NCBI GenBank assembly: GCA_038245725.1
Contig: JBBRSD010000001.1
Coordinates: 224,508 to 288,507 of the forward strand
Length of the DNA: 64,000 nt
Reading direction: 5' to 3'
Source of the DNA: Coriobacteriia bacterium
GTDB lineage: Bacteria; Actinomycetota; Coriobacteriia; Anaerosomatales; JAAXUF01
Shown: positions 6,010 to 62,651 of the stretch, piece by piece
How the letters are laid out: each line of letters starts with the position of its first letter
Position numbering within the stretch: the first letter of the stretch is position 1
Translations under genes and position numbers: made by a program
Notes under the pieces: model-generated
What the model was told of the DNA's origin: nothing
Databases searched by the model: none
The model's input: only the letters and a program-made list of their open reading frames with translations

Positions 6010-6015
6010 CGCCCC

Positions 6016-6543: not shown

Positions 6544-6636
6544 GCGTCCTCCTCCTTCTTCGCTGACCGCTCGGCAAGACCGCGCGGACCAAAGCGAGTG
6601 GTAGTACTTGGCTGGTGTATACCCGAGTGACGGGAG

Positions 6637-8827: not shown

Positions 8828-8950
8828 GCGCCGCGACACCGAAGCGCTGAGCCCGCGTGGCTGTCTATGCCGAGAACCGCCGCCGCGATAGACTGACCGA
8901 CGAGCCGCAGGCGTAAGCGCCGCCGGCCGGAATCTCGAGCGAGGGGCGGG

Positions 8951-10072: not shown

Positions 10073-10243
10073 CCGGCTCCGCTCGCGACCGCGGTGGCGC
10101 CCCCGCTGCGGCCGTTCGCATGCGTTGCGAGCCCGCCAGCGGCTTGACCCTCCTCGGCCACGGGACTACCCTGAGTCGCCCCGCCCGGCTTGCCGGAAGC
10201 GGGCTTTCGTGCTGTTCGACCACCGCCGAGGAGTCCTCGCCGC

Positions 10244-13200: not shown

Positions 13201-13675
13201 GATGATCAACGAGGCGGTCAGCGAGGCCCGCGGCGAGCCCGTGGCGGCGTTCCCCGACATCCGTGTCGACCTGCCGGTCGCGGCCTTCCTTCCCGAGACC
13301 TACGTCGAGGCCGCCGACGAGCGCGTGCGCTTCTACCGGCGCCTCGCTGGCTCGCCCTCGATCGAGGCGGTCGACAACGTGGTCGCCGAGCTCGTCGACA
13401 AGTACGGCCTGGCGCCCGAGCCGGCCCGCAACCTCGTCGACATCGCCCGCATCCGGGCGATGGCTGCCGAGGCCGGGGCGACCAACGTCGCCATCGTTCG
13501 GCGCCGTCTCACCGTCTGGCCGCTTTCGCTCTCCGACGAGCGACGCGGCAAGCTTGCGGCTCAAGGCGTCGTCTGGATGGAACGCGAGCGGAAAGCCGCT
13601 CGGGCACTGGACTATGGAGAGTCTGTGACCCATGCAGCTCTAGGCATGCTCGGTGCTATACTGGCGCCTGTCTGA
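10244..13675 (+). CDS. mfd: transcription-repair coupling factor
   Basis: About 1140 aa. CarD-like region (DFVVHATHGIALF), DEAD/H helicase motifs (GDVGYGKTEVA, DEEQRFG) and TRG motif region. Start at ATG 10244 preferred over 10190. Confidence 0.95.
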   Translation: MLINRLAASLSAAKPFATIADALARGDDATLAAPGLIRPALVASIFALEPRPVLVVLAGEESAERFWRQTASLLDRSRVLHLPDRADLPWTDAAPNLAAIGARSHALYALDKNRPQVVVASARALMRTVPPQGSHVFDPLVLAAGASLDLDTAVATLARMAYERVESAESPGQFAVRGGILDVYPAGSSSPVRVELFGDEIETLRHFVPSTGQAIGDAEPIEVFPCRELAISARGAEVAEKLLRDRALKQPAIAHELELLGEGVYFNGIERYLPLFYKRVGMATEYLGTETLVVVAEPRSLFDDAVRYREELEAAAASISHRSLVPGKSALEGLFLTPAQLDFGERQRLTLVSLHRAGAGVDAQLAARRPEVSGGEERFIGGVRSLSSTGYSVALTVPDRRARRRIADSLAVAGVPFAEERDHTVLATADRALSATALTITDTDVPAGFVIPDAKIAVISIDDVYPRSQVRRARRQIDPTRVTFGFAPGDFVVHATHGIALFKEMVRQEVLGSERDYLLLEYSKGDKLYVPVEQIDRVTKYVGAEGSSPRVTRLNTADWSKATGKARKAARQLAFDLVDLYARRSTVTGFAYGPDTPWQMEMEASFPFEETPDQLAAIADVKADMESEKPMDRLICGDVGYGKTEVAIRAAFKATQDGKQAMVLCPTTILAQQHFTTFSERFAPYPVKVEVLSRFRSDEQQKTALAGFLAGEVDILIGTHRLLSRDVAPKNLGLVIIDEEQRFGVEHKEHMKNLREQVDVLTLSATPIPRTLQMSLSGVRDMSVIDTPPPNRFPVMVHVGEWDEDVVSGAVRRELERGGQVYYVSNRVKTIDDAVRRVTDAAPEARIGVAHGQMSERELERVMEAFSANEIDVLVATTIIESGIDNPHSNTLIIEDSQRLGLAQLYQLKGRVGRSHIKAYGYFLFPATAALTEQALERLTAIGENTELGSGIKVAMRDLEIRGAGSLLGAEQSGQMSAVGFDLFAQMINEAVSEARGEPVAAFPDIRVDLPVAAFLPETYVEAADERVRFYRRLAGSPSIEAVDNVVAELVDKYGLAPEPARNLVDIARIRAMAAEAGATNVAIVRRRLTVWPLSLSDERRGKLAAQGVVWMERERKAARALDYGESVTHAALGMLGAILAPV

Positions 13676-13702
13676 CCACGGCTATCAGGAGGAATCGGGC
13701 CG

Positions 13703-14707
13703 ATGAAGTCCACTCGTCTACTGCTCGTAACCGCGCTCTTGGGAGTGCTCGTTGCGACTGCGTTCGCTACCGGCGGATGTTCGAATAAGAACGTCGCCGC
13801 GAAGGTCAACGGCGACACTGTTTCGATGACCACGCTCAACACCCAGCTCGACCAGCTCAAGAAGCAGTACCCGACGATGTTCACCGGCGCCGACGGCGAA
13901 GGGCGACTTCTCGACTTCAAGCAGCGCCTTCTGGACAACCTCGTCAACCAGAAGCTCATCGAGCAGGCCGCGAAGCAGAAGGGTGTCGCCGTTTCAGACG
14001 CTGACATCCAGAAGCAGGTCGATCAGCTCAAGAGTGGATTCAAGGACCAGGCCCAGTTCGAGGCAGCTCTCAAGAGCGCGGGCATGACGCTTGATTCGCT
14101 CAAGGAGCAGGTCACACAGCAGCTCATCACCAACAAGCTCATGGAGTCGCTGGCGTCGAATCAGCAGGTCACGAACGCCGACATCGAGGCCTACTACAAC
14201 AAGAACAAGGCGCAATTCAACCAGAAGGCCCAGAAGCGCGCCTCACACGTCCTCTTCAAGACCACCAACAAAGCAATCGCCGAGAAGGTGCTCAAGCAGC
14301 TTCGGGCCGGAACGATCGCTTTTGCGGCCGCCGCGAAGAAGTACTCCATCGACACCGCGACCGCTGCCAACGGTGGGGACCTGGGCTGGCCGAACGGAAC
14401 GAGCTACGTACCTGAGTTCCAGGCCGCGCTCGACAAGCTGAAGAAGGGCCAGATGTCGAGCCTCATTCAGTCCACCTACGGCTACCACATCATCCTGGTC
14501 ACCGAGACTCGGGCGGCCAAGCAGCAGACGGTGGCCGACGTGAAGACCCAGATCCAGCAGATCATCCTGCAGCAGCGCAAAGCCGATGCCTACCAGCAGT
14601 TTCTCGACCAGCTGCGCAAGACCGCCAAGATCGAGATCCTGGATCCTGATCTGAAGGCCGGTGCAGGCAAGAGGGCTGCTTCCACGAACGCGACCGCCGC
14701 CAAGTAG
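13703..14707 (+). CDS. PrsA/SurA-like parvulin peptidyl-prolyl isomerase lipoprotein
   Basis: Signal peptide with lipobox AFATGGC, a SurA_N-like helical region, and a PpiC domain (ASHVLFK ... GGDLGW ... GYHIILV). Confidence 0.8.
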   Translation: MKSTRLLLVTALLGVLVATAFATGGCSNKNVAAKVNGDTVSMTTLNTQLDQLKKQYPTMFTGADGEGRLLDFKQRLLDNLVNQKLIEQAAKQKGVAVSDADIQKQVDQLKSGFKDQAQFEAALKSAGMTLDSLKEQVTQQLITNKLMESLASNQQVTNADIEAYYNKNKAQFNQKAQKRASHVLFKTTNKAIAEKVLKQLRAGTIAFAAAAKKYSIDTATAANGGDLGWPNGTSYVPEFQAALDKLKKGQMSSLIQSTYGYHIILVTETRAAKQQTVADVKTQIQQIILQQRKADAYQQFLDQLRKTAKIEILDPDLKAGAGKRAASTNATAAK

Positions 14708-36399: not shown

Positions 36400-36948
36400 T
36401 TAGAACTTGACCTCGACGTTGGCCCTCTCGGCGGGTGCTGCCTCGATGAACTCGAAGGCGGAGAATCCGAGCGAGCTGGCGATCAGGTTGGTGGGGAACA
36501 CCTGGATCGACGTGTTGAAGTCGCGAACGTTGGAGTTGTAGAAACGCTGCGCGGCCATGATCTTATCCTGCGTGTCGGTGATCTCGGCCTGCAGCGAGAG
36601 GAAGTTCTGGTTCGCCTTCAGATCGGGGTAGGCCTCGGCGACGGCGAAGAGGGACTTCAGCGTCTCGGTGAGCTGGTTGCTCGCCTGGATGCGCTCGCCG
36701 GTCGATCCGGTCAGCAGGCCCGCGCGCTCAGCGGCGACCTTCTCGAAGAGCTCGCGCTCGTGAGTGGCGTAGCCCTTCACCGTTTCGACGAGGTTGGGGA
36801 TGAGCTCGTATCGACGCTTGAGCTGGACGTCGATATCACTCGCCGCCTCGGCGACGCGGTTCTTGCGGGTAATGAGCCCGTTGTAAACGGCGATCAACGC
36901 GGCCACGAGCACCACGACGATCGCGATCACTATCCAGAGTCCCATCAT
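36400..36948 (-). CDS. lemA: LemA family protein
   Basis: N-terminal TM helix then YNGLITRKNRVAEAASDIDVQLKRRYELIPNLVETVKGYATHE. Start at the ATGATG at 36948 with RBS ggagga upstream. It lies 3 nt upstream of htpX. Confidence 0.9.
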   Translation of the reverse strand: MMGLWIVIAIVVVLVAALIAVYNGLITRKNRVAEAASDIDVQLKRRYELIPNLVETVKGYATHERELFEKVAAERAGLLTGSTGERIQASNQLTETLKSLFAVAEAYPDLKANQNFLSLQAEITDTQDKIMAAQRFYNSNVRDFNTSIQVFPTNLIASSLGFSAFEFIEAAPAERANVEVKF

Positions 36949-37096
36949 GGCGAATCCTCCCAATCGTGCATCGGATTTCGGCACGTCCATCATGCTGCAA
37001 CTGGCGCGCCGCTGCGAGTGGTATCACCGAATGGACACAGTCGAACAACCCCATGCTACGCTACCAGCGCCCCTCACCCCGTCTGATTGGTCGCGC

Positions 37097-39001
37097 ATGC
37101 CATCGCTGGTCCTCGGCACCGCCGGGCACATCGATCACGGCAAGTCGGCGCTCGTCAAAGCGCTGACCGGCACCGATCCGGACCGCCTGCCCGAGGAGAA
37201 GGAGCGCGGCGTCACGATCGAGCTGGGCTTCGCGCAGCTCATCCTTCCCAGCGGGCGCGCAATGGGCGTCGTCGACGTGCCCGGCCACGAGAAGTTCGTG
37301 CGCCAGATGGTCGCTGGCGCGACCGGCATCGACGTGGTGCTGCTCGTGGTCGCTGCCGACGACGGCGTGATGCCGCAGACGCGCGAGCATCTCGCGATCA
37401 TCGACCTGCTGGGGATCGAACGCGGCGTGGTTGCGATCACGAAGTCCGACCTCGCCGACGAAGAGTGGCTCGAGATAGTGCGCGCCGATGTCGAGGAGCT
37501 GCTCGCCGGCACCAGCATCGAGAGCGCACCGATCGTCGCCGTGAGTGCCAAGACCGGCGCCAGCCTGCCGGAGCTGCTGGCTACGATTGACGAGGTCGCA
37601 AAGACCGCCGAGGCGCGCCACGCGGACCTGCCGATGCGCCTGCCTGTCGACCGCGTGTTCACAATTGCAGGCGCGGGCACCGTCGTGACCGGCACGATGT
37701 GGTCGGGCACCGTGCGCCGAGACGACACGGTCGAGATCTACCCGGAAGGCGAGCGTGCTCGTGTGCGCAGCGTGCAGGTGCACAGCGAGCCCGTGGCCGA
37801 GGCGCATGCGGGCCAGCGCGTGGCGATCAACCTTGCTGGTGTCGAGCGCGACGAGATCGCCCGCGGCGATATTCTCGCGCTGCCTGGTTCGCTCAGCGTG
37901 ACCGACCGCTTCGACGCCCGCTTCACCTACCTCGGCACGCCCGGCGACGAGAAGCCCTTCGAGTCTGGCGCTCGCGTGCACGTCAACCACGGAACGCGCG
38001 AAGTGCTCGGCCGCGTGCTGCTCATGGACGTCGAGCGCCTGCTCCCCGGCCAGTCCGCGCTCGCGCAGGTTCGCCTCGAAGAGCCGCTCGCGCCGCGCTA
38101 CGACGACCGCTTCATCGTCCGCAGCTACTCGCCGGTCTACACGGTCGGCGGCGGCATTGTGCTTGACACCCTCCCGCCGCGCCGCACGCAACTGACGCCC
38201 CGCGAGCGCGACCTGCTCGGCGCGCTCGTCGCGCACGACTTCGCCGGCGCCTCGACCGGGCTGCTTACCTCGCGCGGCGTCCCGATGACGTCGGCCGAGG
38301 TCGCCGCCGCGCTTGGCGTGCAGCGCTCCATCGTCGCCGACGAGCTCAACCGCGCGAAGTTGGAGCGCCTGAAGGTCGCCTCCGACACCTACTTCGTGAC
38401 GCCGAGCGCGCTCGAGGCGCTCATCGCGGCCATCGAGCGCCACCTGCTCGCTTTCCACGCCGAGAACCCCTCGGCGACCGGCATCTCGACGAGCGCGCTT
38501 CGCGACCTCGTCGAGCGCCGCATCGAGCCGCGCGTCTTCGACGCGCTGCTCGGCGTCGCCTCGCAGCGGGGGATCGCCGCGGTCGACGCCGGGCTGGCCC
38601 GCCACCCGAAGGCGGCGGTGAGCGCGCTTGCCGCGGAAGCGTCAGCGGAGGCCGCGCTTGTGGCGCTCATCGAGTCCCAGCGGCTTGAGCCCGCCGGTCC
38701 GGCCGCACTCGCGTCAGCTGCCGGCATCGACGTGGGGCTCGCGCGCAAGGCGCTCGGCAAGCTCGCGACCGAGGGCCGCGTGGTGCGCGCCAACGCAGAC
38801 ATGCACTTCTCGGCGGCGGCGATCGCGCTGGCCAAAGAGCGCGTGGCCGGCTACCTGGCGCAGCATCCGGACGGAGCGAGCGCTGCGGAACTGCGCGACG
38901 CGCTCGGCGTGAGCCGGAAGTTCGCGATACCGCTGCTTGAGTATTTCGACGCTCAGGGAGTCACCAGACGCGTCGGCGACGTCCGAGTGCTGCGGGGCTG
39001 A
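37097..39001 (+). CDS. selB: selenocysteine-specific translation elongation factor
   Basis: [25 protein letters not shown] (G1), DVPGHEKF (G3), the SKSD-type G4 (ITKSD), and C-terminal winged-helix repeats. Start at ATG 37097 within track ORF 36947..39001. Confidence 0.9.
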
Positions 39002-40442
39002 CCGCGGGCGCTGACTTCGCCGTCACGCTGCGATCGCCCGGTGCGGTGATCCGGGGCAATTCGATCGTGAAGCGAGCTCCCGTGCCGCTGACGTTCTCTG
39101 CGCGGATCGTGCCGCTGTGCAGATCGACCAGCCGCCGCGCGATGGCGAGTCCGAGACCGGCACCGCCCGAGTCCTGCGGCCGCGGACCCTGCGCGCGGTA
39201 GAAGCGGTCGAAGATGCGCTCGAGTTCGGGCTCGGGGATGCCGGGGCCGTCGTCGGCGATCATGAGGCGTACATGCAGGTCATCGGCGTTGGCCGACAAG
39301 GTGATGTGTCCCCCCTCCGAAGTGTGCGAGAAGGCGTTCTTAAGCACGTTGAGGAGTGCCTGGTCGAGCAGGTCCGGATCGCCCGAGACCCACAGCCCGG
39401 CCACGGCATCGACCGTTATCGTTCGCGGCCCGAGCATGTTGACCCGCGCGGCGCCTTCCTCGAGCATCGTGCGTACCTCGAGCGGCTGGAACGGACGCGC
39501 GGCTCCCTCGAGACGGGCGAGCGAGAGCAGTTCGTCGAGGAGCCGGGTCATGCGAGCCGACTCGGCGTCGATCATCTCGAGGCTCTCGAGCGCGTCGACG
39601 CCGCCGATCCGCCCGCTGTGCAGGAGTTCGACGTTGCCGCGGACGATCGACACCGGAGTGCGAAGCTCGTGACTCGCGTTGGCGACGAACTTTCGCTGCT
39701 CGGCGTAGGCGTGTTCGAGCCGGCCGAGCATCGCGTTCAACGCGCTCGCGAGCGCTCCGAGCTCGTCGGGAGGTCCCTTGTAGTCCAACCGCATCCCAGG
39801 TGACGCAACCGAGATGGCCGAAGCGTCAGCCGCCATGAGGTGCAGCGGTCGCAGCGCCTCGCGCGCAGCCCAGATCGACAGCGCCGAGGCCAGGACGACG
39901 ACGAGGATGCCTGCGGCACCGAGCGCGCTTACAACACCGACCGCGATGTTGCGCGCGGTGTCTGCCGAGAGCGCGACCTGGAAGGTGCCGATACGCGAGC
40001 CGTCCGCGGCCTCCACCGGTACCGAGAGCGTCCGGTAGGTCGTGCCATCGAGCTTCGCATAAGCGAACGCTGGAGCGGTTGGAGGCGACGTCAGCACGTG
40101 GTTGTCCGCCGCAGAGTAGATTGCGATGTCGGAGTTCGAGATCTTGCGGCCTCCGTCGAAGACAAGTAGAAGGATCGGGCTCGCGCCGGACTGGCCACCG
40201 GTGCGGCCCTGCAGATAGGTGCGCGTGGCGGCTGCCAGGGCCTCGCTCGCGGGAGCGCTACGAACGGCCGCTGCGTACGCGGATGCCTCGCGCACGAGCG
40301 TTCGGTCGGTCTCGCTGCCGAGATTGCGGAGCGTGATGACGTAGGCCAAAGCGCACAGAAGAAGGATGGCGGCCGCGGTGGCCAAGGACATGGTGAGCGC
40401 GACGCGCCCGCTTGCCGACAGACGGCGCCTACGCACGGACAC
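38961..40442 (-). CDS. sensor histidine kinase (two TM, extracytoplasmic sensor, HAMP, HisKA, HATPase_c)
   Basis: H-box FVANASHELRTP, N box LLNVLKNAFSHT and G boxes DDGPGI / GGAGLGLAI. The start is ambiguous (GTG 40442 or 40436, overlapping the RR stop). The 3' end overlaps the selB 3' end by 41 nt. Confidence 0.85.
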   Translation of the reverse strand: MSVRRRRLSASGRVALTMSLATAAAILLLCALAYVITLRNLGSETDRTLVREASAYAAAVRSAPASEALAAATRTYLQGRTGGQSGASPILLLVFDGGRKISNSDIAIYSAADNHVLTSPPTAPAFAYAKLDGTTYRTLSVPVEAADGSRIGTFQVALSADTARNIAVGVVSALGAAGILVVVLASALSIWAAREALRPLHLMAADASAISVASPGMRLDYKGPPDELGALASALNAMLGRLEHAYAEQRKFVANASHELRTPVSIVRGNVELLHSGRIGGVDALESLEMIDAESARMTRLLDELLSLARLEGAARPFQPLEVRTMLEEGAARVNMLGPRTITVDAVAGLWVSGDPDLLDQALLNVLKNAFSHTSEGGHITLSANADDLHVRLMIADDGPGIPEPELERIFDRFYRAQGPRPQDSGGAGLGLAIARRLVDLHSGTIRAENVSGTGARFTIELPRITAPGDRSVTAKSAPAVSPAALGRRRRVW

Positions 40443-41097
40443 GGTACCCGGCGCCCCGAACGGTCTCGACAACGGATGACTCGCCATCGCGGTCGAGTTT
40501 TCGACGAAGGTAGCCTACGTACACATCGACGACATTGCTGCCGGCGTCGAATCCGATGCCCCAGACGGAGTCAAGAATCTGCTGTCGAGAAAGCACCTGG
40601 CCCTCGTGTCGCATGAGGTATTCGAGAAGTGCGAACTCGCGGCTGGGCAGGTCGACGTGGATGTCGCCGCCACGGGTCGCGACACGCGTCTTGGTGTCGA
40701 GCGTCATGTCGCCTACGGTCAGCACCCGGGAGGACGCGGAGCCCTGGCGCCCCGCGGCGCGGACCCGCGCGGCGAGTTCGGCGAAAGCAAACGGCTTCAC
40801 GAGATAGTCATCGGCCCCCGCGTCGAGCACGTCGACTTTGTCGTCGATCTCGCCCAGAGCACTGACAACGATCACGGGTAGCTCGGGCTTCGAGATACGG
40901 ATGGAGCGCAGCACCTCGGTGCCGCGCGCGTCCGGAAGGATGAGATCGAGCAATACGAGGTCGAAGTCGTATGTGGCTTCGATGGCGATCGCATCGGCTG
41001 CATTGGCTGCGCGCTCGACCGAGTGACCCTCGGCCCGCAACCCCTTGACCATGAATGATGCGATGCTGTCCTCGTCTTCAACGACCAGGATCCGCAC
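40429..41097 (-). CDS. OmpR-family response regulator
   Basis: VRILVVEDEDSIA receiver domain (phospho-acceptor in LVLLDLILPD) and a winged-helix C-terminus (EFALLEYLMRH ... GAGYRV). GTG 41097 follows RBS ggaggag. Confidence 0.9.
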   Translation of the reverse strand: MRILVVEDEDSIASFMVKGLRAEGHSVERAANAADAIAIEATYDFDLVLLDLILPDARGTEVLRSIRISKPELPVIVVSALGEIDDKVDVLDAGADDYLVKPFAFAELAARVRAAGRQGSASSRVLTVGDMTLDTKTRVATRGGDIHVDLPSREFALLEYLMRHEGQVLSRQQILDSVWGIGFDAGSNVVDVYVGYLRRKLDRDGESSVVETVRGAGYRVRA

Positions 41098-41098
41098 G

Positions 41099-41524
41099 CT
41101 AGTCTCCTCCGCTCGGGTTGCCTCGCCCCCCACTGCTGTGCTCCGACGACGCACCTTCCCCGTTGTCGAGCACCGGCGGTTTCACGATTTCGACCGAGTT
41201 GCCGTCCGAAGACGATGAACTCGCGCCGCTCTTGACCGACGTTGGAGTGCTTGGCTTCTTGGTGTTCGAGTAGTTCTTGCCCGAATTCGGCTTCGACTTA
41301 GAGGGTTTCGGAGAGACGATGCTGCTCGGAGCTGAGTGAGACGTCGCCGAGAGAGGGGCACTGACGGCGGACGAAACGGTCGATGTGACCGGGCGAGACG
41401 TGATCACGATCGGCACGTCGCCTGCGGTGGGACCATGGCCGGTGGAAGCAACAGCGACCCCGACCGCGGCGAGGCCGATAATTACGCCTATGACGATTAT
41501 CACCTTCACCGTGTGTCCCAACAT
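41099..41524 (-). CDS. small membrane-anchored Ser/Thr/Pro-rich hypothetical protein
   Basis: 141 aa. One N-terminal TM helix (VKVIIVIGVIIGLAAVGVAVA) followed by a low-complexity S/T/P/K-rich tail. Its stop lies 1 nt before the RR start codon. Confidence 0.45.
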   Translation of the reverse strand: MLGHTVKVIIVIGVIIGLAAVGVAVASTGHGPTAGDVPIVITSRPVTSTVSSAVSAPLSATSHSAPSSIVSPKPSKSKPNSGKNYSNTKKPSTPTSVKSGASSSSSDGNSVEIVKPPVLDNGEGASSEHSSGGRGNPSGGD

Positions 41525-41583
41525 TGCATCGCCAGTTTCTCTACTCTGAGTTGATTATCACCTATGCGGACGGTGTTGCGGGC

Positions 41584-42960
41584 CTAGCCACCATTGGACG
41601 AGTCGTGGCATGCGATGCACGTGTGCGTCGTGAAGCCGTTGGGATGGCAGTTCGTGCATGCGAAGCTCTTTGAGGAGTGCTGTCCGCCGCGGATGGGAGC
41701 GTGTGAGAAGGCCCAGCTCACGCCGGTGTTGTGATGGCAGTTCGAGCACTGGCCGGCGGCCATTCCGGCCGGTCGTGCGTGGCAGCTTGTGCAGTTCGCT
41801 CGGCTGCCCGGATGTGTGAACGCCCAGCTGACACCAGGCTTGCGATGACAGGTCGAGCACTGGCCGGCGGCCATTCCGGCCGGTCGTGCGTGGCAGCTAG
41901 CGCAGTTCGCTCCGATGCCAGGGTGCGAGAACGCCCAGCTAACGCCAGGCTTGCGATGACAGGTCGAACAGGCACCTGCGGCCATGCCTGCGGGGCGCGG
42001 GTGGCAGCTAGCGCAGTTCGCTCCGATGCCAGGGTGCGAGAACGCCCACGACTTCCCGGGCTGCTTGTGGCACGTCGCGCAGTCGCCGCGGATGCTCGTG
42101 TGCTTCGCGGGACGGACGTGGCATGTCGAGCAGTCTGAGCCCGATGTGTGCGAGTGCATCCATGTCTTTGCCACCTGCTCGTGACAGCTCGTGCACTGCG
42201 TGGACGCGGGGTGAACCGCCGGACGGTTGTGGCATGAGGCGCAGTCAACGCCTGAGAGAGGGTGCGTGAAGACGAACTTCGGACCGGTCCGGTGACACGT
42301 CGTACACTCGCCACGCGGCTTGTGCTGCGGCGTGTGGCACGTCGAGCAAGCTGTCTTCGACATCGTGTGACAGCGAGAGCACACGACCGTGATATGTCCT
42401 GCCAGATCGGCGGCTCCGGCGTCGATGACGGCGAGGCTCGTGCCCGCCGACGCGGCGGCCGAGATGGCGGTGGGGTTGAGGATTCCCGCCTGCTGAAGCG
42501 TTGAGGCGGGCACCGCGTGGCCGGCCGTCTGGTGGCAGCTCGCGCACGTGCCCCGGGTCGCGTGCGTCTTGTGGCTGAAGCCAGGTACGAGAACGGTCAC
42601 GGTCGTATGACAGCGGATGCATCGCGAATCGGGGACCTCAGTCGGAGTCATGCGCGGGAAGGACGTGTCGCTCCGGAAGTGAGCGACGACCTCCTTGAGG
42701 GCCGAGAACTTGTGAGTCAGCCGAGCGGTCTGACCTGGTTCTACATGGCATTCGAGACACGAAGCGTCGCGATGGGGACCTTGGGACCATGCCGAGAGGT
42801 ACGGACTCATCTCATGGCAGGTGGAGCCGCAGAACGACGGTTTGTCGGTCGCGTGGGCGATGCCAAGGAACGCGGCAGCACCAACGCCGATAGCCACCAG
42901 GCCGACAAGCAGCCAGGTGCCTACCTTGCGAGATATTCTCCACGTCACTGGACTTGTCAT
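41584..42960 (-). CDS. NapC/NirT (NrfH/CymA)-type membrane-anchored multihaem cytochrome c, 19 haem motifs
   Basis: N-terminal TM anchor, then FCGSTCHEM ... CLECH (the NapC/NirT head). In total 18 CXXCH plus one CX3CH. The C-terminal half is made of paired-CXXCH repeats (SWAFSHPG ... CASCH ... CSTCH). Confidence 0.85.
   Translation of the reverse strand: MTSPVTWRISRKVGTWLLVGLVAIGVGAAAFLGIAHATDKPSFCGSTCHEMSPYLSAWSQGPHRDASCLECHVEPGQTARLTHKFSALKEVVAHFRSDTSFPRMTPTEVPDSRCIRCHTTVTVLVPGFSHKTHATRGTCASCHQTAGHAVPASTLQQAGILNPTAISAAASAGTSLAVIDAGAADLAGHITVVCSRCHTMSKTACSTCHTPQHKPRGECTTCHRTGPKFVFTHPLSGVDCASCHNRPAVHPASTQCTSCHEQVAKTWMHSHTSGSDCSTCHVRPAKHTSIRGDCATCHKQPGKSWAFSHPGIGANCASCHPRPAGMAAGACSTCHRKPGVSWAFSHPGIGANCASCHARPAGMAAGQCSTCHRKPGVSWAFTHPGSRANCTSCHARPAGMAAGQCSNCHHNTGVSWAFSHAPIRGGQHSSKSFACTNCHPNGFTTHTCIACHDSSNGG
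41703..42075. repeat. about 3.4 tandem copies of a 111-bp (37-codon) unit inside the cytochrome gene
   Basis: The string cgagcact recurs at 41743 and 41854, and the diverged cgaaca at 41965, giving a period of 111. Long identical runs such as ggccggcggccattccggccggtcgtgcgtggcagct are shared between copies. Confidence 0.8.
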
Positions 42961-43195
42961 GCGCGCCGTCCCGTCGTCAGTTCACGCCGTTGGGATTATC
43001 TTCGTCTCCGCAGGTGAGGGCTGCATGAGGGGTGCGTGAGAACTTCCTCACGGTCAAACGCCGCCTCGTCGTCGCGCGTGGCGGGGATCCGGCGGTTTGA
43101 CACAGCATCGCACGCTCGAGAGAATGCCGAGGACATGGGGCAGGCGATTCTCGGCGGGCGTTTGCGCTCATCGTCGCCGGGCGAAGGGGCGAGAC

Positions 43196-45991: not shown

Positions 45992-46259
45992 CGACCGGAC
46001 CGGGATGGAGCACCCGCGGATGGCACCTCGTGGTGCGACCTGCGGCAACACGGTATCCTGTTGGTGGAGGCGGTTCTCGGCTGGTGCTGGGCTTGGTCTT
46101 CAAAACCACAGTGGGGCGTGAAGAGCGTCCCGGGTGTGTTCGATTCGCACACGCCTCCGCCACGTGCGCAAAACCGGCGTATCGCAGATGCAGACGCCGT
46201 TGCTTCAGTCATGCCAGGGGTTGTTGACGCGATCCCGCAGAGTTTGGAAGGGGAGCACG

Positions 46260-54570: not shown

Positions 54571-55005
54571 CTACGCCGACCGTTCTTCGCTGTGCCGCGC
54601 GCAGGCGGGGCACAGGCCGTAGAAGGTGACCTCGTGGCGCGTGATGACGAAGTTCTCGCGAGCCGGGTCGCTCGGCACATGCGCTACGGGGCACTCGGCG
54701 ATCTCGATCCGGCCGCAGCCGTCGCAGACGACGTGGTGGTGGTGCGGCTCCTCGGCGTCGCAATGCGCGAACAGTCCGCACCCGTCGCGGTCGCCCACGC
54801 GCTCGAGCCAACCGCTTGCGATCATCGCCGAGACCGCGCGGTAGACGGTCGCGGTTCCGATCGTGGGATCGAGCGTGCGGGCAGCTTCAGCGAGCGCTTC
54901 GACGTTAAACGCGCCGACCATCGCCGCAGCGGCATCGGCGATGACTCGCCTCTGCGGGGTCATGCGGCTGCCCCGAAAGGCGGCGCGCGTGTCTGCTGCG
55001 TTCAT
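54571..55005 (-). CDS. Fur-family metalloregulator (possibly Nur/Zur-like)
   Basis: RMTPQRRVIADA, TVYRAVSAMIASGWL (winged helix), HHHHVVCDGCG and CPAC (structural Zn site). It lies 4 nt upstream of cbiM on the same strand. ATG 55005 preferred. Confidence 0.85.
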   Translation of the reverse strand: MNAADTRAAFRGSRMTPQRRVIADAAAAMVGAFNVEALAEAARTLDPTIGTATVYRAVSAMIASGWLERVGDRDGCGLFAHCDAEEPHHHHVVCDGCGRIEIAECPVAHVPSDPARENFVITRHEVTFYGLCPACARHSEERSA

Positions 55006-55078
55006 CAGTCCAAGCCCCAGTTCCCCTGCGCGACGACGGCACGAGTCGTTCGAGTTGCGGCTGCGAGTATACCCTTCG

Positions 55079-55093
55079 TGAGAATGGTTATCA
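55079..55093. promoter_or_regulatory. candidate Fur-family 7-1-7 box in the fur/lysR divergent region
   Basis: TGAGAAT-G-GTTATCA compared with the classical TGATAAT-N-ATTATCA. The half-sites match each other at 5 of 7 positions. Confidence 0.3.
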
Positions 55094-55199
55094 CTTGGCG
55101 CTCGCGTGACTCCGAGGCGGCAATAAGTCATGCTTATGCCACGTCTTCCAGCAAGCTCGGCATCCGGACGCATCGAACACTCGCCGAGAAAGGCTCCTC

Positions 55200-56406: not shown

Positions 56407-56544
56407 GCGTGGTATTGCCATTCTAGAGTGGAGAGGCATGCCGCCGGTGTCCGGCAATCACCCGCGGAGCAGCGCTCATGGCTCGAAACTCTATGCCGTC
56501 ACGGCCGAAAGCCGGCGGCGCGACAAGGGAGTAGGGGGTGTCAG

Positions 56545-57417
56545 TTGATCGGGCTGACGCAACTAAACGTATGGATCGACGTGATCTTCACGGTGCTGTA
56601 CGTGGTCATTGTGGTCGCGTTGTCGGGGCACTTCCTCGGCAACATTCTCACGGGCCGCGCTAAGAGCCGCTTCGTGAACTGGGAGTGGCCTCACCATGAG
56701 GGCGGTCCCATTCCCACGGCGCCCAAGATCATGCACTTCCAGCACGTGGCCGCGATGATCGCTCTTGGGGTCTCCGGCATGTACATCCGGTTCCCGTTCT
56801 TTAACGGTGGCCGGACTGCGATGCGTTGGGTGCACTACATCGCGATGACGATTGTGATCGTGAACCTGGTGGCGCGCCTGTGGTACGCGTTCGCATCGAA
56901 GCGCCGAGACTACCGTGAGTTCGCCATCACCAAACGCGACATCACCACGGCGCCGAAAGTCATCCTGTATTACATCTTCGTCAAGCCGTCCAAGCCGCAC
57001 CTCGGCAAGTACAACGTGATGCAGAAGATGACGTACTCGATCTTCGTACCGCTGCTGATCGCTCAGGCGTTCACGGGCCTGGCGCTCTTGACGATGCGCG
57101 TTCCGCTGGTCAACGCGTCGCCGCGTGAACTGCTCGTGGGATGGTGGCTCGGCGCGATGCTGGGGTCGGTCGATATGGCCGGTTGGTGGATGCGCACGGC
57201 GCACTATCTCATCAACTGGTTGTTCATCGTGCTCACCACAATCCACGTCTATCTGTCCGTGACTGAGGACTTTCCTGCCTTCATGGACTTCTTCGGTCTG
57301 AGCTTTCTGGGGCCTGCCCACCACGAAGAGGGCGGCCACGAGCACGATCACGGAGGGCACGAACTACTACCGGGTACGGAAACTGCTCCAGCACTCGCAT
57401 CCATCGATCCACTCTGA
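56545..57417 (+). CDS. membrane b-type cytochrome (Ni/Fe-hydrogenase / FdnI-type cytochrome b family)
   Basis: Polytopic with conserved His in the helices (IMHFQHVAAMIALGVSGMYIRFPFF, WVHYIAMTIV, TAHYLINWLFIVLTTIHVY). TTG 56545 after gggagtaggggg is preferred; the track start at 56428 adds a basic, non-membrane leader. Confidence 0.75.
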   Translation: MIGLTQLNVWIDVIFTVLYVVIVVALSGHFLGNILTGRAKSRFVNWEWPHHEGGPIPTAPKIMHFQHVAAMIALGVSGMYIRFPFFNGGRTAMRWVHYIAMTIVIVNLVARLWYAFASKRRDYREFAITKRDITTAPKVILYYIFVKPSKPHLGKYNVMQKMTYSIFVPLLIAQAFTGLALLTMRVPLVNASPRELLVGWWLGAMLGSVDMAGWWMRTAHYLINWLFIVLTTIHVYLSVTEDFPAFMDFFGLSFLGPAHHEEGGHEHDHGGHELLPGTETAPALASIDPL

Positions 57418-58416
57418 GTGAGCCGATCCACCCGAGAGGCCTCTGAATTGACGTTGCGCCCCGCTATCGCCTTCGCGATGTTGGCAGCTGTTCTGCTGCT
57501 GCCGGCATCTGCGTGCGCGGCCGCAGCGGGCCTTTCGGCAACGCAGCCGACAGCCGGGGCGATGCCTTCTCGGGTGACCACTACGTCGGGGTCGACGTCG
57601 CTGACGGTCACGTACGATCTCACGTGGACGTTGCCTACGGCTGGGAAGTCAGGGTGCACGGTCTGTCACAGCGACAAGGACTTGGTGCGCATCCAGGCGG
57701 GCAAGACCGTCAGCCTCTACGTCAACACGGCAGTCCTGAAGAACTCGGCCCACAAGGACGTTCCGTGCACGGGCTGTCACGTGGATTTCGCATTCAAGGC
57801 CCCGCATTCCAACGTGTCGAAGGTGGGCAACGAGTGGCGTGCGGTCGCGAAGCTCTCGTGCAAGAACTGTCACCGGAACGAGTTCTCGGAGTTCACTGCT
57901 GGAGCGCATTCGCCAACTACCTTGTCTGGAAGAGTCGCAACATCGACCGTGGGTCGGCCGAACTCATCGGCACCGGGCATGCCCAAGCCCTATTGCGGCG
58001 ATTGCCACGGGGGCCACAGTATCGCGGCATCCGACAACGTTGTGGCGATGAGGCTGGTGCATGCGACGGGCATCGAGATGTGTGGCAAGTGCCACAAAGA
58101 GAGCACGGCGTCGTATCAGGATTACTACCATGGCGCGGCCTACCGCGAGGGGGCGCCCGATGCACCAGCGTGCTGGGACTGCCACAATACGCATAAGATA
58201 CTTGTGTCGAGCGACCGGCAGTCGTCGGTCTATTCGGACCGCTTGTACGATACCTGCAACAAGTGTCACCGAGACCCGCGGGACGGATACACCGCGTACG
58301 CTCGATTGATCCATGGGAAGCAGGCCGTGTTGGACTCAAACCCTGTCATTGCGTGGTTGAAGTTAGCCCAACAGCAGATCGGCCTTTTCGTCCAGAAGAC
58401 GGAAGCGATTTTCTAG
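57418..58416 (+). CDS. secreted heptahaem c-type cytochrome
   Basis: 7 CXXCH motifs (CTVCH, CTGCH, CKNCH, CGDCH, CGKCH, CWDCH, CNKCH) and a hydrophobic signal sequence AFAMLAAVLLLPASACA. GTG 57418 directly abuts the cytochrome b stop; a later start at 57478 is possible. Confidence 0.85.
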   Translation: MSRSTREASELTLRPAIAFAMLAAVLLLPASACAAAAGLSATQPTAGAMPSRVTTTSGSTSLTVTYDLTWTLPTAGKSGCTVCHSDKDLVRIQAGKTVSLYVNTAVLKNSAHKDVPCTGCHVDFAFKAPHSNVSKVGNEWRAVAKLSCKNCHRNEFSEFTAGAHSPTTLSGRVATSTVGRPNSSAPGMPKPYCGDCHGGHSIAASDNVVAMRLVHATGIEMCGKCHKESTASYQDYYHGAAYREGAPDAPACWDCHNTHKILVSSDRQSSVYSDRLYDTCNKCHRDPRDGYTAYARLIHGKQAVLDSNPVIAWLKLAQQQIGLFVQKTEAIF

Positions 58417-58478
58417 CGAAGCAGCTCGTAAGCGGTCGGCACCGGTGCGGCGCCGACGGGGAGAAGGGGAACCGAAGA

Positions 58479-59801
58479 ATGTCCCGCCAACTCAAAGCAA
58501 GCCCCGGCAGGCTGCTTGCCCTCCTGATTGCGACGGTGGCGTTCGCCACGGTGATCGGGCAGGCGTCGTGCGCATTCGCTGCAGATGCGAATGCGCCGCT
58601 CGACGTGGCAGGCACGGCGCAATTGATTCAGCAGCTTGGCCAGTCACCTGTCGACGAGGCCGTCTGCACGAGTCTGTGCCACGCCAACATCGCGCAGACG
58701 AAGAACTACGCCTCTGCGATCAAGTTCTCGCACGGCAACCACATCATCGTTCAGTGCAGCTCGTGTCACGCCAAATTCCCTCATCAGCTCGGCGGCACCC
58801 AGAAGCCGACGATGAAGGGTTGCTTCGACTGTCACGGAGTGCGACACGGGTCGATGGGTGTTATCGCCAAGAGCGACTGCACGGCATGTCACGTGACTCC
58901 GCGTTACCAGATGGACTGTCCGTACAACAAGACGGTCGTAGATTGGGCGGGCAAGGGCCATGTCGCCCTCAGCAACACGCAGCTCAACACAGACTGCATG
59001 CGCTGCCACACGGCCGCGAACTGCACGGACTGCCATGACAAGCAAGGTGTCGTGTGGGAGCCCAAGACCAACTGGGATTACGACTCGAACAACGGCTGCC
59101 AGTCGTGTCACGGCAGCTCGAACCTGCTCAAGCAGGACAATGGCGCACAGAAGTCATTCCAGGTCCAGGGCATCGAGGAATCCGTCCACCGTGGCATCAC
59201 GTGTCAGCAGTGCCACATCGACTACCGATATGACGACAAGCCGTCGGTCACGAAGCTGTGGAACGTCAACGTGGGGCTGAATTGCGCGAATTGCCACCAG
59301 ACACTGCCGAGGTCACAGGACAGCTCGCCAGTGGCCCTGTACGAGAAGTCTATTCACGCGCAGAAGATCCGCGATGGCAACTACAAGTCCGCCACGTGCG
59401 GTTCGTGCCACGGCGGCCACTTCATCTACAGCCTCAAGACCGCCGAGGGTAAAGCACAGATGCACGCCTCGGCGCTGAGGGTCTGCGCGAGGTGCCACCT
59501 CGATAAGTACGTGTCGTACAACGACTACTATCACGGCCGTGCATACAAAGAAGGCGCCCCCGATGCGCCTGCGTGCTGGCAATGCCACGAGCCCCACGAC
59601 GTGCTACCTCAAGCCGACCCGAAGTCGACGGTCAACGCTGCGAACGTCGGAGCCACCTGTGGTCGACCGGGATGTCACAAGGGGTCGAGCGAATCCTTCG
59701 GTCAACAGGCCGACCAGCTGATCCACCGCAAGGCCACCGCAGTCGACACGAACCCGGTCCTCCAGTTCTTCGCGAACCTGTTCAAGAAGAAGACCGGCTA
59801 G
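58479..59801 (+). CDS. secreted multihaem c-type cytochrome, 13 haem motifs
   Basis: ATG 58479 follows gagaagggga. The signal peptide ends AFA-AD. 11 CXXCH plus CTSLCH (CX3CH) plus CGRPGCH (CX4CH). Confidence 0.85.
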   Translation: MSRQLKASPGRLLALLIATVAFATVIGQASCAFAADANAPLDVAGTAQLIQQLGQSPVDEAVCTSLCHANIAQTKNYASAIKFSHGNHIIVQCSSCHAKFPHQLGGTQKPTMKGCFDCHGVRHGSMGVIAKSDCTACHVTPRYQMDCPYNKTVVDWAGKGHVALSNTQLNTDCMRCHTAANCTDCHDKQGVVWEPKTNWDYDSNNGCQSCHGSSNLLKQDNGAQKSFQVQGIEESVHRGITCQQCHIDYRYDDKPSVTKLWNVNVGLNCANCHQTLPRSQDSSPVALYEKSIHAQKIRDGNYKSATCGSCHGGHFIYSLKTAEGKAQMHASALRVCARCHLDKYVSYNDYYHGRAYKEGAPDAPACWQCHEPHDVLPQADPKSTVNAANVGATCGRPGCHKGSSESFGQQADQLIHRKATAVDTNPVLQFFANLFKKKTG

Positions 59802-59823
59802 GCATAGGGAGTACGCTGTCAGG

Positions 59824-61458
59824 GTGACTAGCGGGAACAACATACGACGCGCAAGTATATGGGGGGTGGCTGCGGTTCTCATCGCAGCCGCCCTCATCGT
59901 TGCGCCCCATGTGGCTCGCGCGGATGTCCCCGCCATCCCTTCGGCACCTCCGATCGACACGTCCGCTGCGGTCGATCAGAACCAGTGCGCTCCATGCCAC
60001 CTCGATCTCGGCACGGTGAAGAAGCCGGGCATCATCTTCAGCCACGGCAACCACCTCATGGTCTCGTGCGATGGCTGCCACTCACGCATGCCGCATTCCA
60101 ATGGCGGCAACACCGACACCGTGCCCATGGAAGTCTGCTTTGCATGCCACGGAGTCCAGCACGGTCCGCAAGGTGAGTTGGCCACGTCCACCTGTTCGAA
60201 GTGCCACCCGAAATCGTTCAACTTGAAGCCGGCGTCGCATATAAAGGGCTACGCTGCCAAGCCTCACGCCGATGATTCGAAGCGGCTCGGCGTCAACAGC
60301 TGCATGAGGTGTCACAACGGGCCGAAGGACTGCGACGCCTGCCACGTGAAGATGAAGCTCGGATTGCCCAAGATGCCCCGAACCTACGTCTCGGTCATTC
60401 TGGGTCGACCGAAGCCGCCCTCTGTCAAGATCTTCCCCACGGGTCCGACATCGATGGCGCAGTGTGTCTACTGCCACCCCGACCTCGATCACATAACTCC
60501 CGGGCGGCTCATCTTCGCGCACGCCGCGCACCTGCAGCGCGACTTCAAATGCACGACCTGCCACCCTCAATTCGGACACTCTGCAAGTGGCCCGGAGCGT
60601 CCGGACATGCTGTCGTGCTACCGCTGCCACGGGCTCCAACATAGTGGACAAGGGCTTGTGGCCGGCGACGCCTGCCGGAAGTGCCACCCGACGAGTTTCG
60701 CTCTGGTTCCCACGAATCACACGCCGGAGTTCAAACGAGGCAAACACAAGGCACTCGCCAACAGGGACCTCGCGTACTGCGGAATGTGCCACCAGCCCGA
60801 GTTCTGCGTGACCTGCCACACCGGCAAGAGCAACTCCGTGAACGCTACGCCAAAACCGGTCCTTCCCTCCGACCACACGGACGCGAGGTGGCTGGCCAAG
60901 CACGGCCAGGAGTACATGGGCCGACAGGGTTCGTGCGGCGCTTGTCACGGTGGCCCATCGTGCCAAAGGTGCCACCTGACGCCGGTACCGCATCCACCCA
61001 ACTGGATCTCGAACCACCGCCCGCCACCAGGAATTCCGGCAAGCGACTGCAACATCTGCCATCGCGACCGCACCAAGTGCCAGAACTGTCACCACGGGCA
61101 GGTCAAGAACGGCGAGCTTGTCGAGTCGAGCTGCGCGCGGGGACCCGGGATGAGGGGATGTCACGTCGAGATGCTGCAGAAGCCTGCCACTTCGATAAAG
61201 AACAAGCCCTTCGCCGAGCACGCCGTGCATTTCACTGTCGCGAAGAAGAAGGGGCACATAGGGCGCCCGTACCACTGCTACGAATGTCACACCGACTTCG
61301 GCAATTCGACAAACGCCAACAAGACCGAGGTCCAGCAGGGGCACGACCTGCATCTGTGCTACAGCTGTCACGGTGCGCTCGATCCGTTCAACGTGCGGAT
61401 CGCCCCGTTCAAAGGGGCGGCGCTCTGCCTGCGCTGTCATACCAACATGAATATCTAG
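59824..61458 (+). CDS. secreted multihaem c-type cytochrome, about 20 haem motifs
   Basis: The signal peptide ends ARA-DV. 19 CXXCH plus CARGPGMRGCH (a possible CX8CH). There is an internal duplication of a six-haem module. Confidence 0.85.
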   Translation: MTSGNNIRRASIWGVAAVLIAAALIVAPHVARADVPAIPSAPPIDTSAAVDQNQCAPCHLDLGTVKKPGIIFSHGNHLMVSCDGCHSRMPHSNGGNTDTVPMEVCFACHGVQHGPQGELATSTCSKCHPKSFNLKPASHIKGYAAKPHADDSKRLGVNSCMRCHNGPKDCDACHVKMKLGLPKMPRTYVSVILGRPKPPSVKIFPTGPTSMAQCVYCHPDLDHITPGRLIFAHAAHLQRDFKCTTCHPQFGHSASGPERPDMLSCYRCHGLQHSGQGLVAGDACRKCHPTSFALVPTNHTPEFKRGKHKALANRDLAYCGMCHQPEFCVTCHTGKSNSVNATPKPVLPSDHTDARWLAKHGQEYMGRQGSCGACHGGPSCQRCHLTPVPHPPNWISNHRPPPGIPASDCNICHRDRTKCQNCHHGQVKNGELVESSCARGPGMRGCHVEMLQKPATSIKNKPFAEHAVHFTVAKKKGHIGRPYHCYECHTDFGNSTNANKTEVQQGHDLHLCYSCHGALDPFNVRIAPFKGAALCLRCHTNMNI

Positions 61459-61601
61459 AGTTCCTGTGAAGCTTCACACGCTCTGAGCGGCAATTGATAC
61501 AGTAAGCACCGCATGTGCTCCAGCGATTTCCGCGCGCGTACTCGTCCCGGCAGACGGCCGTGCGTTCTGTAGCGCACCTCGATGTAAGGGGTTCATCGCA
61601 T

Positions 61602-62651
61602 ATGGCTGACCCACAGCGGTTGGATACGGTACTCAAGCTCGGCATCGCCACGCTGCTCGTGGCGATCGTGGCGCTCGGCGGCTGGTTCGGTTACTCGGTG
61701 TACCGAGATCGGATAGCCGCTGAAGACGCGACACCGGCGCTTCGAATCATGAAGGTCATCAAGGCCCAGGTCGACAAGAGCCCCAACGACGCAGTCCTGC
61801 GTGTGAGACTCGGCGAAGCTTTGGCGGCAGCTGGACGTACGCAACAGGCCATTGAACAGCTCAATGCCGCGCTCAAGATCGATCCGAAGCACACGGGCGC
61901 ATATACCGACCTCGGACTGGTCGCCCTGATGAATAACAGGCCCGATGAGGCTAGGGACTACTTCAAGAAGGTCGTCGAACTCACCAGCAGCAACCCCATG
62001 GCGGACTCTAACGACCGTCGCGAGATCGCGTTCTTCAATCTCGGGAAGCTGGAGATGTCGCAGAAGAACTACGACCCGGCGATCGGGTACTTCAAGGAGG
62101 CGCTGCGAATTCGCAACGACGCTTCGGACACGTACTTCTTCCTCGCCGAAAGTCTGAACGCGATCGGCCAGCCGCAAGAAGCCAAGCAAAACGTCGCAAT
62201 TGCCTTGAAATTCGACCCGAACTTCGCCCAGGCACACTATCTCCTCGGCAAGTTACTACTTGCAGACGGCGACAAGGTCCGTGCGTCGGCCGAGATCGGC
62301 AAGGCGCTGACGCTGTCCCCCACGGCTCCCGAGCCCAAGGCGCTCGCTCAAGAGATCGGCGATCCCGCGCAACTTGCGGCGCAGGCACAAAGCGAAGCTG
62401 CGTCGGACCCGGAGGCTGCTCTGACCGACGCGACGATCGCGTTCAACCTTGACCCGATCCACAACGTCGCAGCCGGGAAGCTCGAGGCGAAGCTGTTGCT
62501 GCAGCGAGGGAACAAGGCCGCCGCGCTGGCCGTCTACAAGACTCTGAGCCAGATCAGCTCGGCGTCAAAGGACGCTCAGGTGCTTGCCGCGATCAAGAAG
62601 CTCACCCCCAAGACATCCAAGCCGAGCACGTCGGCCACGCCGACCAAGTGA
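61602..62651 (+). CDS. membrane-anchored TPR repeat protein
   Basis: ATG 61602. N-terminal TM helix LGIATLLVAIVALGGWFGYSV, then TPR modules (ALKIDPKHTGAYTDLG, ALKFDPNFAQAHYLLG) and a C-terminal S/T/P/K tail. Confidence 0.75.
   Translation: MADPQRLDTVLKLGIATLLVAIVALGGWFGYSVYRDRIAAEDATPALRIMKVIKAQVDKSPNDAVLRVRLGEALAAAGRTQQAIEQLNAALKIDPKHTGAYTDLGLVALMNNRPDEARDYFKKVVELTSSNPMADSNDRREIAFFNLGKLEMSQKNYDPAIGYFKEALRIRNDASDTYFFLAESLNAIGQPQEAKQNVAIALKFDPNFAQAHYLLGKLLLADGDKVRASAEIGKALTLSPTAPEPKALAQEIGDPAQLAAQAQSEAASDPEAALTDATIAFNLDPIHNVAAGKLEAKLLLQRGNKAAALAVYKTLSQISSASKDAQVLAAIKKLTPKTSKPSTSATPTK

Follow-up and report, generated by a model that had tools for sequence, protein, structure and literature searches.

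In Streptomyces, the HbpS-SenS-SenR system reportedly comprises an accessory extracellular haem protein, which modulates the kinase. In the Gram-positive iron reducer Carboxydothermus ferrireducens, the protein Ga0395992_02_135863_137242 (459 amino acids (aa), 20 haems), named a "putative Q-oxidase", was proposed to be the entry point of extracellular electron transfer and was reported to be constitutive (PMC7829351). Similarly, "putative quinol oxidizing multihemes" were found in two cultured Anaerosomatales, with homologues in Anaerosoma and Parvivirga (PMC9686372). Neither of these two reports describes a linked two-component system, small protein or operator. Here, we analyse a 64,000-nucleotide (nt) stretch of a Coriobacteriia genome (GenBank assembly GCA_038245725.1, contig JBBRSD010000001.1, positions 224,508 to 288,507; hereafter "the window"), in which the gene of a 19-haem cytochrome c is followed by genes for a small membrane protein, a response regulator and a histidine kinase. 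These genes probably constitute a regulated respiratory module, in which the two-component system switches on the adjacent cytochrome. The many-haem quinol-oxidase fusion is not new, the class being already published as a prediction; what is new is that the small protein is conserved, that the sensor is specific to the clade and that a candidate operator is well defined. In window coordinates, the main features are the following:

41584 to 42960, minus strand: 19-haem cytochrome c of 458 aa, with an N-terminal transmembrane (TM) anchor, an NrfH-like tetrahaem module, a linker and ~15 haems (Pfam, motif count, alignment with NrfH 2J7A)
41099 to 41524, minus strand: small single-pass membrane protein of 141 aa with a disordered, Ser/Thr/Pro-rich external tail (positional conservation, no Pfam family)
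40429 to 41097, minus strand: OmpR-family response regulator of 222 aa (Response_reg and Trans_reg_C)
38961 to 40442, minus strand: histidine kinase with the order TM-sensor-TM-HAMP-HisKA-HATPase (Pfam, AlphaFold2 (AF2) sensor model, Foldseek)
43013 to 43050, minus strand: predicted operator of ~38 nt, conserved in orthologous sites (window sequence TGAGGAAGTTCTCACGCACCCCTCATGCAGCCCTCACC)
42995 to 43000, minus strand: -10-like GATAAT of the putative cytochrome promoter, 34 nt before the ATG at 42960 and aligned with a conserved CGATnCT

Direct repeats spaced by one helical turn over the -35 position are the classic target of OmpR/PhoB-family regulators. An alignment of 23 sites (the window and 22 orthologous sites), taken from the 200-nt regions that precede the cytochrome genes, gave the consensus T(G/A)AG-N6-TCTCAY-N6-CTCAY-N6-CTCAY, with CGATnCT ~10 nt downstream. 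In the window, the palindrome TGAGGAAGTTCTCA at 43050-43037, of the type TGAGRnnnnTCTCA, is followed by CTCAT (43029-43025) and CTCAC (43018-43014). CTCA cores thus recur at intervals of exactly 11 nt (43040, 43029 and 43018), and the third of them overlaps the -35 position. Repeated half-sites at helical spacing near -35, as in OmpR/PhoB targets, are thus kept in the 23 aligned sites. In addition, the CTCA cores and the recognition helix of the regulator, SN(V/I)VDVY..YLRRKLD, are both near-invariant across loci. Scored with a leave-one-out position matrix, from which the window site was excluded, the window operator reaches 29.9 bits, compared with a mean best score of 5.2 +/- 4.4 per 64 kb and a maximum of 16.5 in 30 Markov-shuffled copies of the window, and there is no second significant site in the 64-kb window. 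The initial annotation had advised looking for a regulator site both upstream of 42960 and upstream of a second cytochrome cluster (at 56545). The first search yielded this conserved candidate operator, which fits two-component control, while no operator is found at ~56.4 kb.

Over ~0.9 Mb of scanned loci, the operator is present in the window and in all 27 further loci which carry the two-component system, and strong sites are nearly confined to the region ahead of the linked cytochrome or, in tandems, of the first cytochrome. Six of these sites were not part of the matrix training (L006, L015, L022, L052, L054 and L055; 24-46 bits). In the loci without the two-component system, no score exceeds 12 bits, and L023 and L024, which still have the cytochrome between the selenocysteine genes selC and selB, have lost the operator together with this system. 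In the intergenic region of L023, the selC promoter is retained and the operator has decayed. Furthermore, in loci where a short paralogue separates the long cytochrome from selC, it is the long cytochrome that the site adjoins; because it tracks this gene in the tandem loci, the operator is assigned to the long cytochrome and not to selC. The co-occurrence of operator and two-component system suggests that the cytochrome promoter is under regulator-dependent control, which is the best-supported reading of the locus.

An interpretation as an RNA element was rejected, as the RNAalifold consensus fold is only -1.39 kcal/mol and the palindrome, with its spacer of 2 nt, leaves no room for a hairpin loop. 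In columns 6 and 28 of alignment A4, a change from G to A in the left arm (TGAG to TAAG) accompanies a change from C to T in the third repeat (CTCA to CTTA) in 3-4 loci; this would fit a single protein that recognises both half-sites, but the covariation is within chance for related sequences (6 of 500 shuffles). In the sublineage of L052 and L053, an operator (L052, 3284-3321, minus strand, 23.9 bits) or its palindromic half (L053, 6535-6572, 11.7 bits) is also located upstream of a surface-protein gene. The encoded Big_7/CarboxypepD_reg protein contains a single CxxCH, has a cupredoxin gene nearby and may be an additional member of the regulon.

The four genes were confirmed, in the open reading frame (ORF) table and the sequence, to lie in series on the minus strand at the coordinates and with the spacings which the initial annotation had given them. 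The cytochrome and small genes are separated by 59 nt (41583 to 41525), with in-frame stops just upstream of the small gene, which fix the ATG start of the small protein. The regulator begins with a GTG at 41097, 1 nt past the TAG of the small gene and behind the ribosome-binding site GGAGGAG, and the kinase frame overlaps the regulator stop. Three starts were considered for the kinase: ATG 40487; GTG 40442, which overlaps the regulator by 14 nt; and ATG 40391, implied by the 476-aa database entry P0128, which is 100% identical to the window kinase. GTG 40442 is more likely than the other two, because the N-terminus that it predicts, VS.RRR..A.GRV, is kept in orthologues. Spaced by 1 nt and -14 nt, the small, regulator and kinase genes form a tightly coupled unit. 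Two genes for the selenocysteine machinery are recurrent neighbours of this block:

36947 to 39001, plus strand: selB, convergent with the kinase gene and a conserved neighbour of the four-gene block
46066 to 46162, plus strand: selC (tRNA-Sec), the divergent neighbour upstream of the cytochrome in most related loci

In a scan of one genome per species, which gave 49 loci, 23 loci contain on one strand a long cytochrome orthologue, an ORF with a TM helix and low complexity, the regulator and the kinase, followed by a convergent selB. Four metagenome loci with the same order were reached through database proteins, which brings to 27 the further loci with this arrangement (23 species-level genomes and four metagenome loci). 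Across the 27 loci, identity to the window is 67-81% for the regulator and 43-63% for the kinase (43-62% in the 23). Hence the question whether the four genes co-occur across genomes, which the initial annotation had left to be checked, receives a clear answer: the linkage is strongly conserved. In L052, a cupredoxin gene follows the block in place of selB. The cytochrome stands alone, without sensory genes, in L001/L050, and L023 and L024 have the order selC-cytochrome-selB, also without them. The genome of L024 encodes its small-regulator-kinase unit ~15 kb from the cytochrome (L053), and ~20 shorter cytochrome paralogues located elsewhere in the genomes lack sensory genes. L026 is duplicated (5861-14093), with a block of cytochrome (15 haems), small, regulator and kinase genes, then selC, a 29-haem cytochrome with an operator-like site, a second selC and selB.

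In at least 24 related loci (L002-L029, L051), selC diverges just upstream of the cytochrome or cytochrome pair, and selB/selA converge on the kinase, so that the four-gene block is embedded in a selenocysteine gene cluster across the clade. This raises the possibility that the genes are neighbours by descent, i.e., that the two-component system regulates something else, that another factor binds the element and that the block was fixed in an ancestral selC-selB/selA locus. In favour of this view, every locus comes from a single Coriobacteriia lineage, the block is almost always bordered by selC and selB, although they are presumably unrelated to it in function, and the system of L024/L053 lies ~15 kb away from its cytochrome. 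However, conservation does not extend to the flanks beyond the block (YfhO, LemA and HtpX are without matches in related loci), and L052 keeps the four genes together without selB. Moreover, the operator accompanies the system in 27 of 27 loci, is absent from the loci without it, disappeared with it in L023 and L024, and has the repeat geometry of an OmpR-type site. Neighbourhood by descent is therefore considered an unlikely explanation of the locus, and regulator-dependent control of the cytochrome is retained.

The initial annotation had also proposed that the four genes are co-transcribed, unless a promoter or terminator separates them in the 59-nt gap. The gap contains no terminator-like hairpin and folds less well than shuffled sequence (z = +1.63), and this part of the proposal stands. 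A possible promoter element is found there:

41554 to 41565, minus strand: conserved -10-like element ATAGGTGATAAT in the gap between the cytochrome and small genes, ~30 nt before the small gene

The exact 11-mer TAGGGCACAAT, the counterpart of ATAGGTGATAAT, occurs once per locus and only in this gap in 5 loci, and variants of it, or GTATACT, are seen in others. L025 and L051 have a complete second operator ahead of the -10-like element; the matrix scan found none in the window's own 59-nt gap. The conserved element and these second operators argue that the small, regulator and kinase genes probably have their own promoter. In addition, the lack of a terminator would make read-through from the cytochrome promoter possible. 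The element is suggestive of a separating promoter, and the cytochrome would then be a neighbour under a promoter of its own, from which transcription may also enter the sensory genes.

If all four genes formed one operon, transcribed from a lone promoter upstream of 42960, the two-component system would be expressed only with the cytochrome. Such an arrangement would agree with the shared strand, the 59-nt and 1-nt gaps and the overlapping kinase start, as well as with a gap devoid of both hairpin and operator in the window. It is nonetheless unlikely, given that the -10-like element is conserved and unique in each locus, that gap lengths range up to ~170 nt, that L013 and L019 have extra ORFs in the gap, and that full second operators stand in the gap of L025 and L051. 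Moreover, a regulator made from a promoter that needs its own activation would have no basal expression. The extra ORFs (L013, 11426-11977; L019, 11619-12143), between the cytochrome and small genes, are TM-anchored and contain highly acidic, D/V-rich repeats.

The cytochrome contains 19 haem motifs, 18 of the CxxCH type and one CxxxCH (CGSTCH, aa 44), and all of its 38 Cys are inside these motifs; it has 40 His. A single N-terminal TM helix (~aa 12-38), preceded by positive residues, and the first four haem motifs, at aa 44 (CX3CH), 68, 114 and 139, reproduce the NapC/NirT layout of a TM anchor and four haems. The Pfam family NapC/NirT (PF03264) matches aa 12-151 with 36.1 bits (cutoff 24.1), over positions 7-172 of the 174 of the model; past aa 151, the Pfam domains are of the c7/c3 type. 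Hence the earlier designation as a 19-haem NapC/NirT cytochrome was correct in the number of motifs, while one of these is CX3CH and the homology to NapC/NirT is limited to aa 12-151. The only sequence match among solved structures is NrfH (2J7A, E 5e-8), which aligns with residues 15-146 over essentially the full length of NrfH. In this alignment, M51 (in CH-E-M), K84 and E90 of the cytochrome correspond to Met49, Lys82 and Asp89 of NrfH, which we take to be the NrfH quinol site, and all three are invariant in the 28-member family alignment. The NrfH equivalog TIGR03153 is the best NCBIfam model for the cytochrome, with a score of 58.8 bits, which is below the cutoff of 134.2, and no nrfA is found among the neighbouring genes.

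The ~300 C-terminal residues carry 15 haem motifs in two-haem repeats of ~37 aa. The family comprises at least 564 database proteins, mostly from metagenome-assembled genomes of Coriobacteriia/"Actinobacteria" and automatically named "NapC/NirT family cytochrome c", and the number of haem motifs per orthologue ranges from 15 to 31. The first haem motif is CX3CH in the window and in many homologues and CX2CH in others. In three repeats of the window (aa 326, 363 and 400), a Met (RPAGMAAG) is found where most homologues have a His (RPxGHxxG); because Met takes the place of the repeat His, some haems of the window protein are suggested to be His/Met- rather than bis-His-ligated. Taken as a whole, the comparison supports the view that the cytochrome is an NrfH/NapC-type quinol-dehydrogenase module fused to ~15 extra haems. 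The initial annotation had read it as a quinol oxidase fused to its own haem wire; a full-length NrfH/NapC-type N-terminus with aligned quinol-site residues and ~15 fused haems agree with this reading, which is not novel, since many-haem fusions had been published before. A quinone pool is plausible, given that genes for a polyprenyl synthase and for a Rieske/cytochrome b complex are also present in the window.

The small protein has a TM helix at ~aa 1-30, a conserved motif just past it, (D/I)(L/I)P(V/T)(I/V)..R, and an acidic motif near the C-terminus, (R/H)E(V/T)(V/I)xPx(V/I)R(D/E)(D/E)D, of which the window version is VEIVKPPVLDNGEG. Its copies are 14-26% identical, yet all share the helix and both motifs, and one is found at the same position in every locus with the two-component system. 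None of the 19 members has a Pfam family, and the window copy has no Pfam or NCBIfam match. By these conserved features of sequence and position, the small protein is a real conserved gene product. The regulator has the receiver (PF00072) and winged-helix (PF00486) domains in the OmpR/PhoB layout, and its closest solved structure is Mycobacterium tuberculosis PrrA (E 7e-49). The best NCBIfam matches of the pair extend over the full length and remain below cutoff: CztR/SilR/CopR (TIGR01387) for the regulator (210.3 bits, cutoff 279.2) and CztS/SilS/CopS (TIGR01386) for the kinase (214.4 bits, cutoff 292.55).

The extracytoplasmic domain of the kinase, initially put at roughly 150 aa, is ~120 aa long. 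Its AF2 model (pLDDT, the model confidence score, 81.7) has a generic extracytoplasmic PAS/PDC fold. In a Foldseek search with this model, WalK and CitA were matched with template-modelling scores of 0.58-0.61 and CzcS (5GPO) came third with 0.39, with no match at E <= 1e-3. The aligned sensors (21 or 22) contain no invariant or near-invariant His, Met or Cys, and their invariant residues are Arg, Tyr, Ser-Asn-Ser and Arg. CusS-like metal sensing by the kinase was accordingly rejected on the sensor residues. The sensor family is tiny, with 39 clusters among 1.84 billion representatives, and hence lineage-specific. A profile search with the sensor alignment in a word-indexed protein database returned 7 proteins only. 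Candidates for the signal are an extracellular acceptor or metal, the redox state of the envelope perceived via the cytochrome and, least likely, a selenium compound.

The second of these candidates would make the cytochrome an input of the system, with the kinase sensor reading the redox state or occupancy of the haem chain, possibly via the small acidic protein and in a manner reminiscent of HbpS/SenS-SenR. A sensor devoid of conserved Cys, His or Met and belonging to a tiny, clade-restricted family would suit interaction with a protein partner, the small protein is never missing from the block and the four genes are tightly conserved together. However, the sensory unit exists apart from the cytochrome in L024/L053, the variation from 15 to 31 haem motifs leaves no obvious fixed docking surface, and the comparison with HbpS is one of analogy. 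Such an input role is considered quite unlikely. The same low confidence is given to a closed feedback device for extracellular respiration in a Gram-positive organism, in which the sensor and the small acidic protein would read the redox state or loading of the haem chain, or the metal or mineral that it touches, and would tune, through the operator, the transcription of the same cytochrome. If true, the cytochrome would be both the output and the antenna of its two-component system.

The third candidate corresponds to a selenium link, in which the system would sense a selenium oxyanion and the cytochrome would reduce it, either to detoxify it or to supply selenocysteine synthesis. A link of this kind would account for the position of the block in the sel cluster, where selC and selB/selA/selD enclose it in at least 24 loci, and the relocated sensory unit of L053 lies near a gene for a Se/S carrier and selD; the invariant Arg, Ser and Asn of the sensor could bind an anion. 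Conversely, neither selenate nor selenite is reduced by the two cultured Anaerosomatales (PMC9686372), the operator of tandem loci goes with the cytochrome and not with selC, L052 has no sel neighbours, and YfhO is inserted beside the cytochrome in the window. A selenium link is thus very improbable.

In the mechanism that we propose, the cytochrome would be held by its single N-terminal helix, with the haem domain outside the cell membrane. The first ~150 residues would act as an NrfH/NapC-type menaquinol dehydrogenase, and the ~15 closely spaced haems would lead electrons away from the membrane and into, or across, the Gram-positive envelope. The kinase, with its lineage-specific PAS/PDC-like sensor, probably works with the small membrane-anchored protein, whose gene may be translationally coupled to that of the regulator, and would phosphorylate the OmpR-type regulator. 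The latter would bind the palindrome and the CTCAY repeats phased by 11 nt over the -35 position, and activate, rather than repress, the cytochrome promoter. The sensory genes would keep a basal promoter in the 59-nt gap. Because no terminator stops it there, transcription from the cytochrome promoter could run into the sensory genes and provide positive feedback.

Several observations weigh against this interpretation. Binding of the operator by the regulator is deduced from co-occurrence only, and the informative natural losses are few (L023 and L024/L053) and possibly represent one event, most of the operator-free loci being paralogues elsewhere in the genome. The locus counts are inflated by descent, since all loci are from one clade. 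Because selB and selC are as conserved as the block, with no obvious functional link to it, synteny alone is weak evidence. In a sigma-70 scan, no consensus promoter was found on the minus strand. With a pLDDT of 61, the AF2 model of the cytochrome is too poor for the geometry of the haem repeats, and the "wire" geometry is consequently drawn from the density of haems only. Finally, quinones were "not detected" in both cultured Anaerosomatales (PMC9686372), which puts the quinol donor in question. Quinones are undetected in these strains (PMC9686372), yet their genomes and the window encode quinol-dependent modules of the NapC/NirT and Rieske/cytochrome b types.

The remainder of the window (GC content ~66%) contains further features of note. 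YfhO stands between the cytochrome and selC, and the coding regions of selB and of the kinase overlap by 41 nt at their 3′ ends (38961-39001). The TTG "start" of the 964-aa YfhO ORF belongs to TTGACA, the -35 hexamer of a promoter-like site (TTGACA-17-GAGAAT; 43097-43125, plus strand), which corresponds to the conserved selC promoter of related loci (TGTCAAAC on the other strand). The true YfhO start is thus probably further downstream, a GTG near 43190, placed by eye, being a candidate. The second cytochrome cluster (56428-62651, plus strand) encodes a cytochrome b561/hydrogenase-type b subunit, three multihaem c-type cytochromes of 332, 512 and 544 aa, two of which have MtrC/MtrF domain II/IV matches, and a TPR protein; a Fur-family regulator gene (54571-55173, minus strand) is located upstream of it. 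At 4393-6543 (minus strand), a Rieske protein and a cytochrome b/c fusion make up a bc-type quinol oxidoreductase. Past its terminator-like hairpin and ahead of a DUF347 membrane-protein gene (TTG 4241), CTCATcttcttCTCAT and GATAAA are found at 4305-4320 (minus strand); the CTCATcttcttCTCAT site resembles half an operator and its score of 7.3 bits is not significant. The selenocysteine machinery in the window consists of selA, selB, selC and a selD-like gene.

A two-component system that controls a neighbouring respiratory gene is ordinary, and the module does not represent a new principle. Anaerosomatales (OPB41) and related Coriobacteriia are widespread in the subsurface, and their respiration of minerals is poorly understood. 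In this context, the module offers a candidate entry point for electrons (from quinol to the haem chain), a dedicated regulator pair and a concrete, conserved DNA target. The regulation of extracellular respiration in one Gram-positive lineage is thereby made directly testable, and cultured relatives exist.

Compared with known systems, the cytochrome shares with NrfH, NapC and CymA the N-terminal TM anchor, four haem motifs in ~140 aa, a CH-x-M first motif and an aligned Lys and acidic residue, whereas it is fused to ~15 haems instead of docking to a separate reductase, and its first motif is CX3CH. The C. ferrireducens protein is of the same size class and has an NrfH/NapC-type anchor domain, the two being likened by description only. 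ImcH and CbcL of Geobacter represent the same concept, i.e., a quinol oxidase, either NapC/NirT-like or linked to cytochrome b, which has additional haems and feeds an extracellular pathway; by its description, ImcH differs from the window cytochrome in its 7 haems, several TM helices and diderm host. On the regulatory side, CusRS, CopRS and CzcRS resemble the window pair in the best NCBIfam subfamilies, in the order of their domains and in having a palindrome in the promoter that they target, with CzcS among the Foldseek matches. However, the window pair falls below the cutoffs, its sensor has no conserved His, Met or Cys, and its presumed target is a cytochrome and not an efflux pump or oxidase. 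As in promoters of the PhoB/OmpR type, where direct repeats every 10-11 bp replace the -35, three CTCA cores spaced by 11 nt, the last of which overlaps the -35 position, stand upstream of a -10-like hexamer; in contrast to these promoters, the window site, whose binding is predicted, has an extra inverted arm, TGAGR, which is palindromic with the first repeat. Finally, as in HbpS-SenS-SenR, a haem protein is encoded with a kinase/regulator pair and an accessory extracytoplasmic component is plausible, but the likeness is one of description: in the window, a respiratory cytochrome with 19 haems takes the place of the haem protein, and the candidate for the accessory role is disordered and membrane-anchored.

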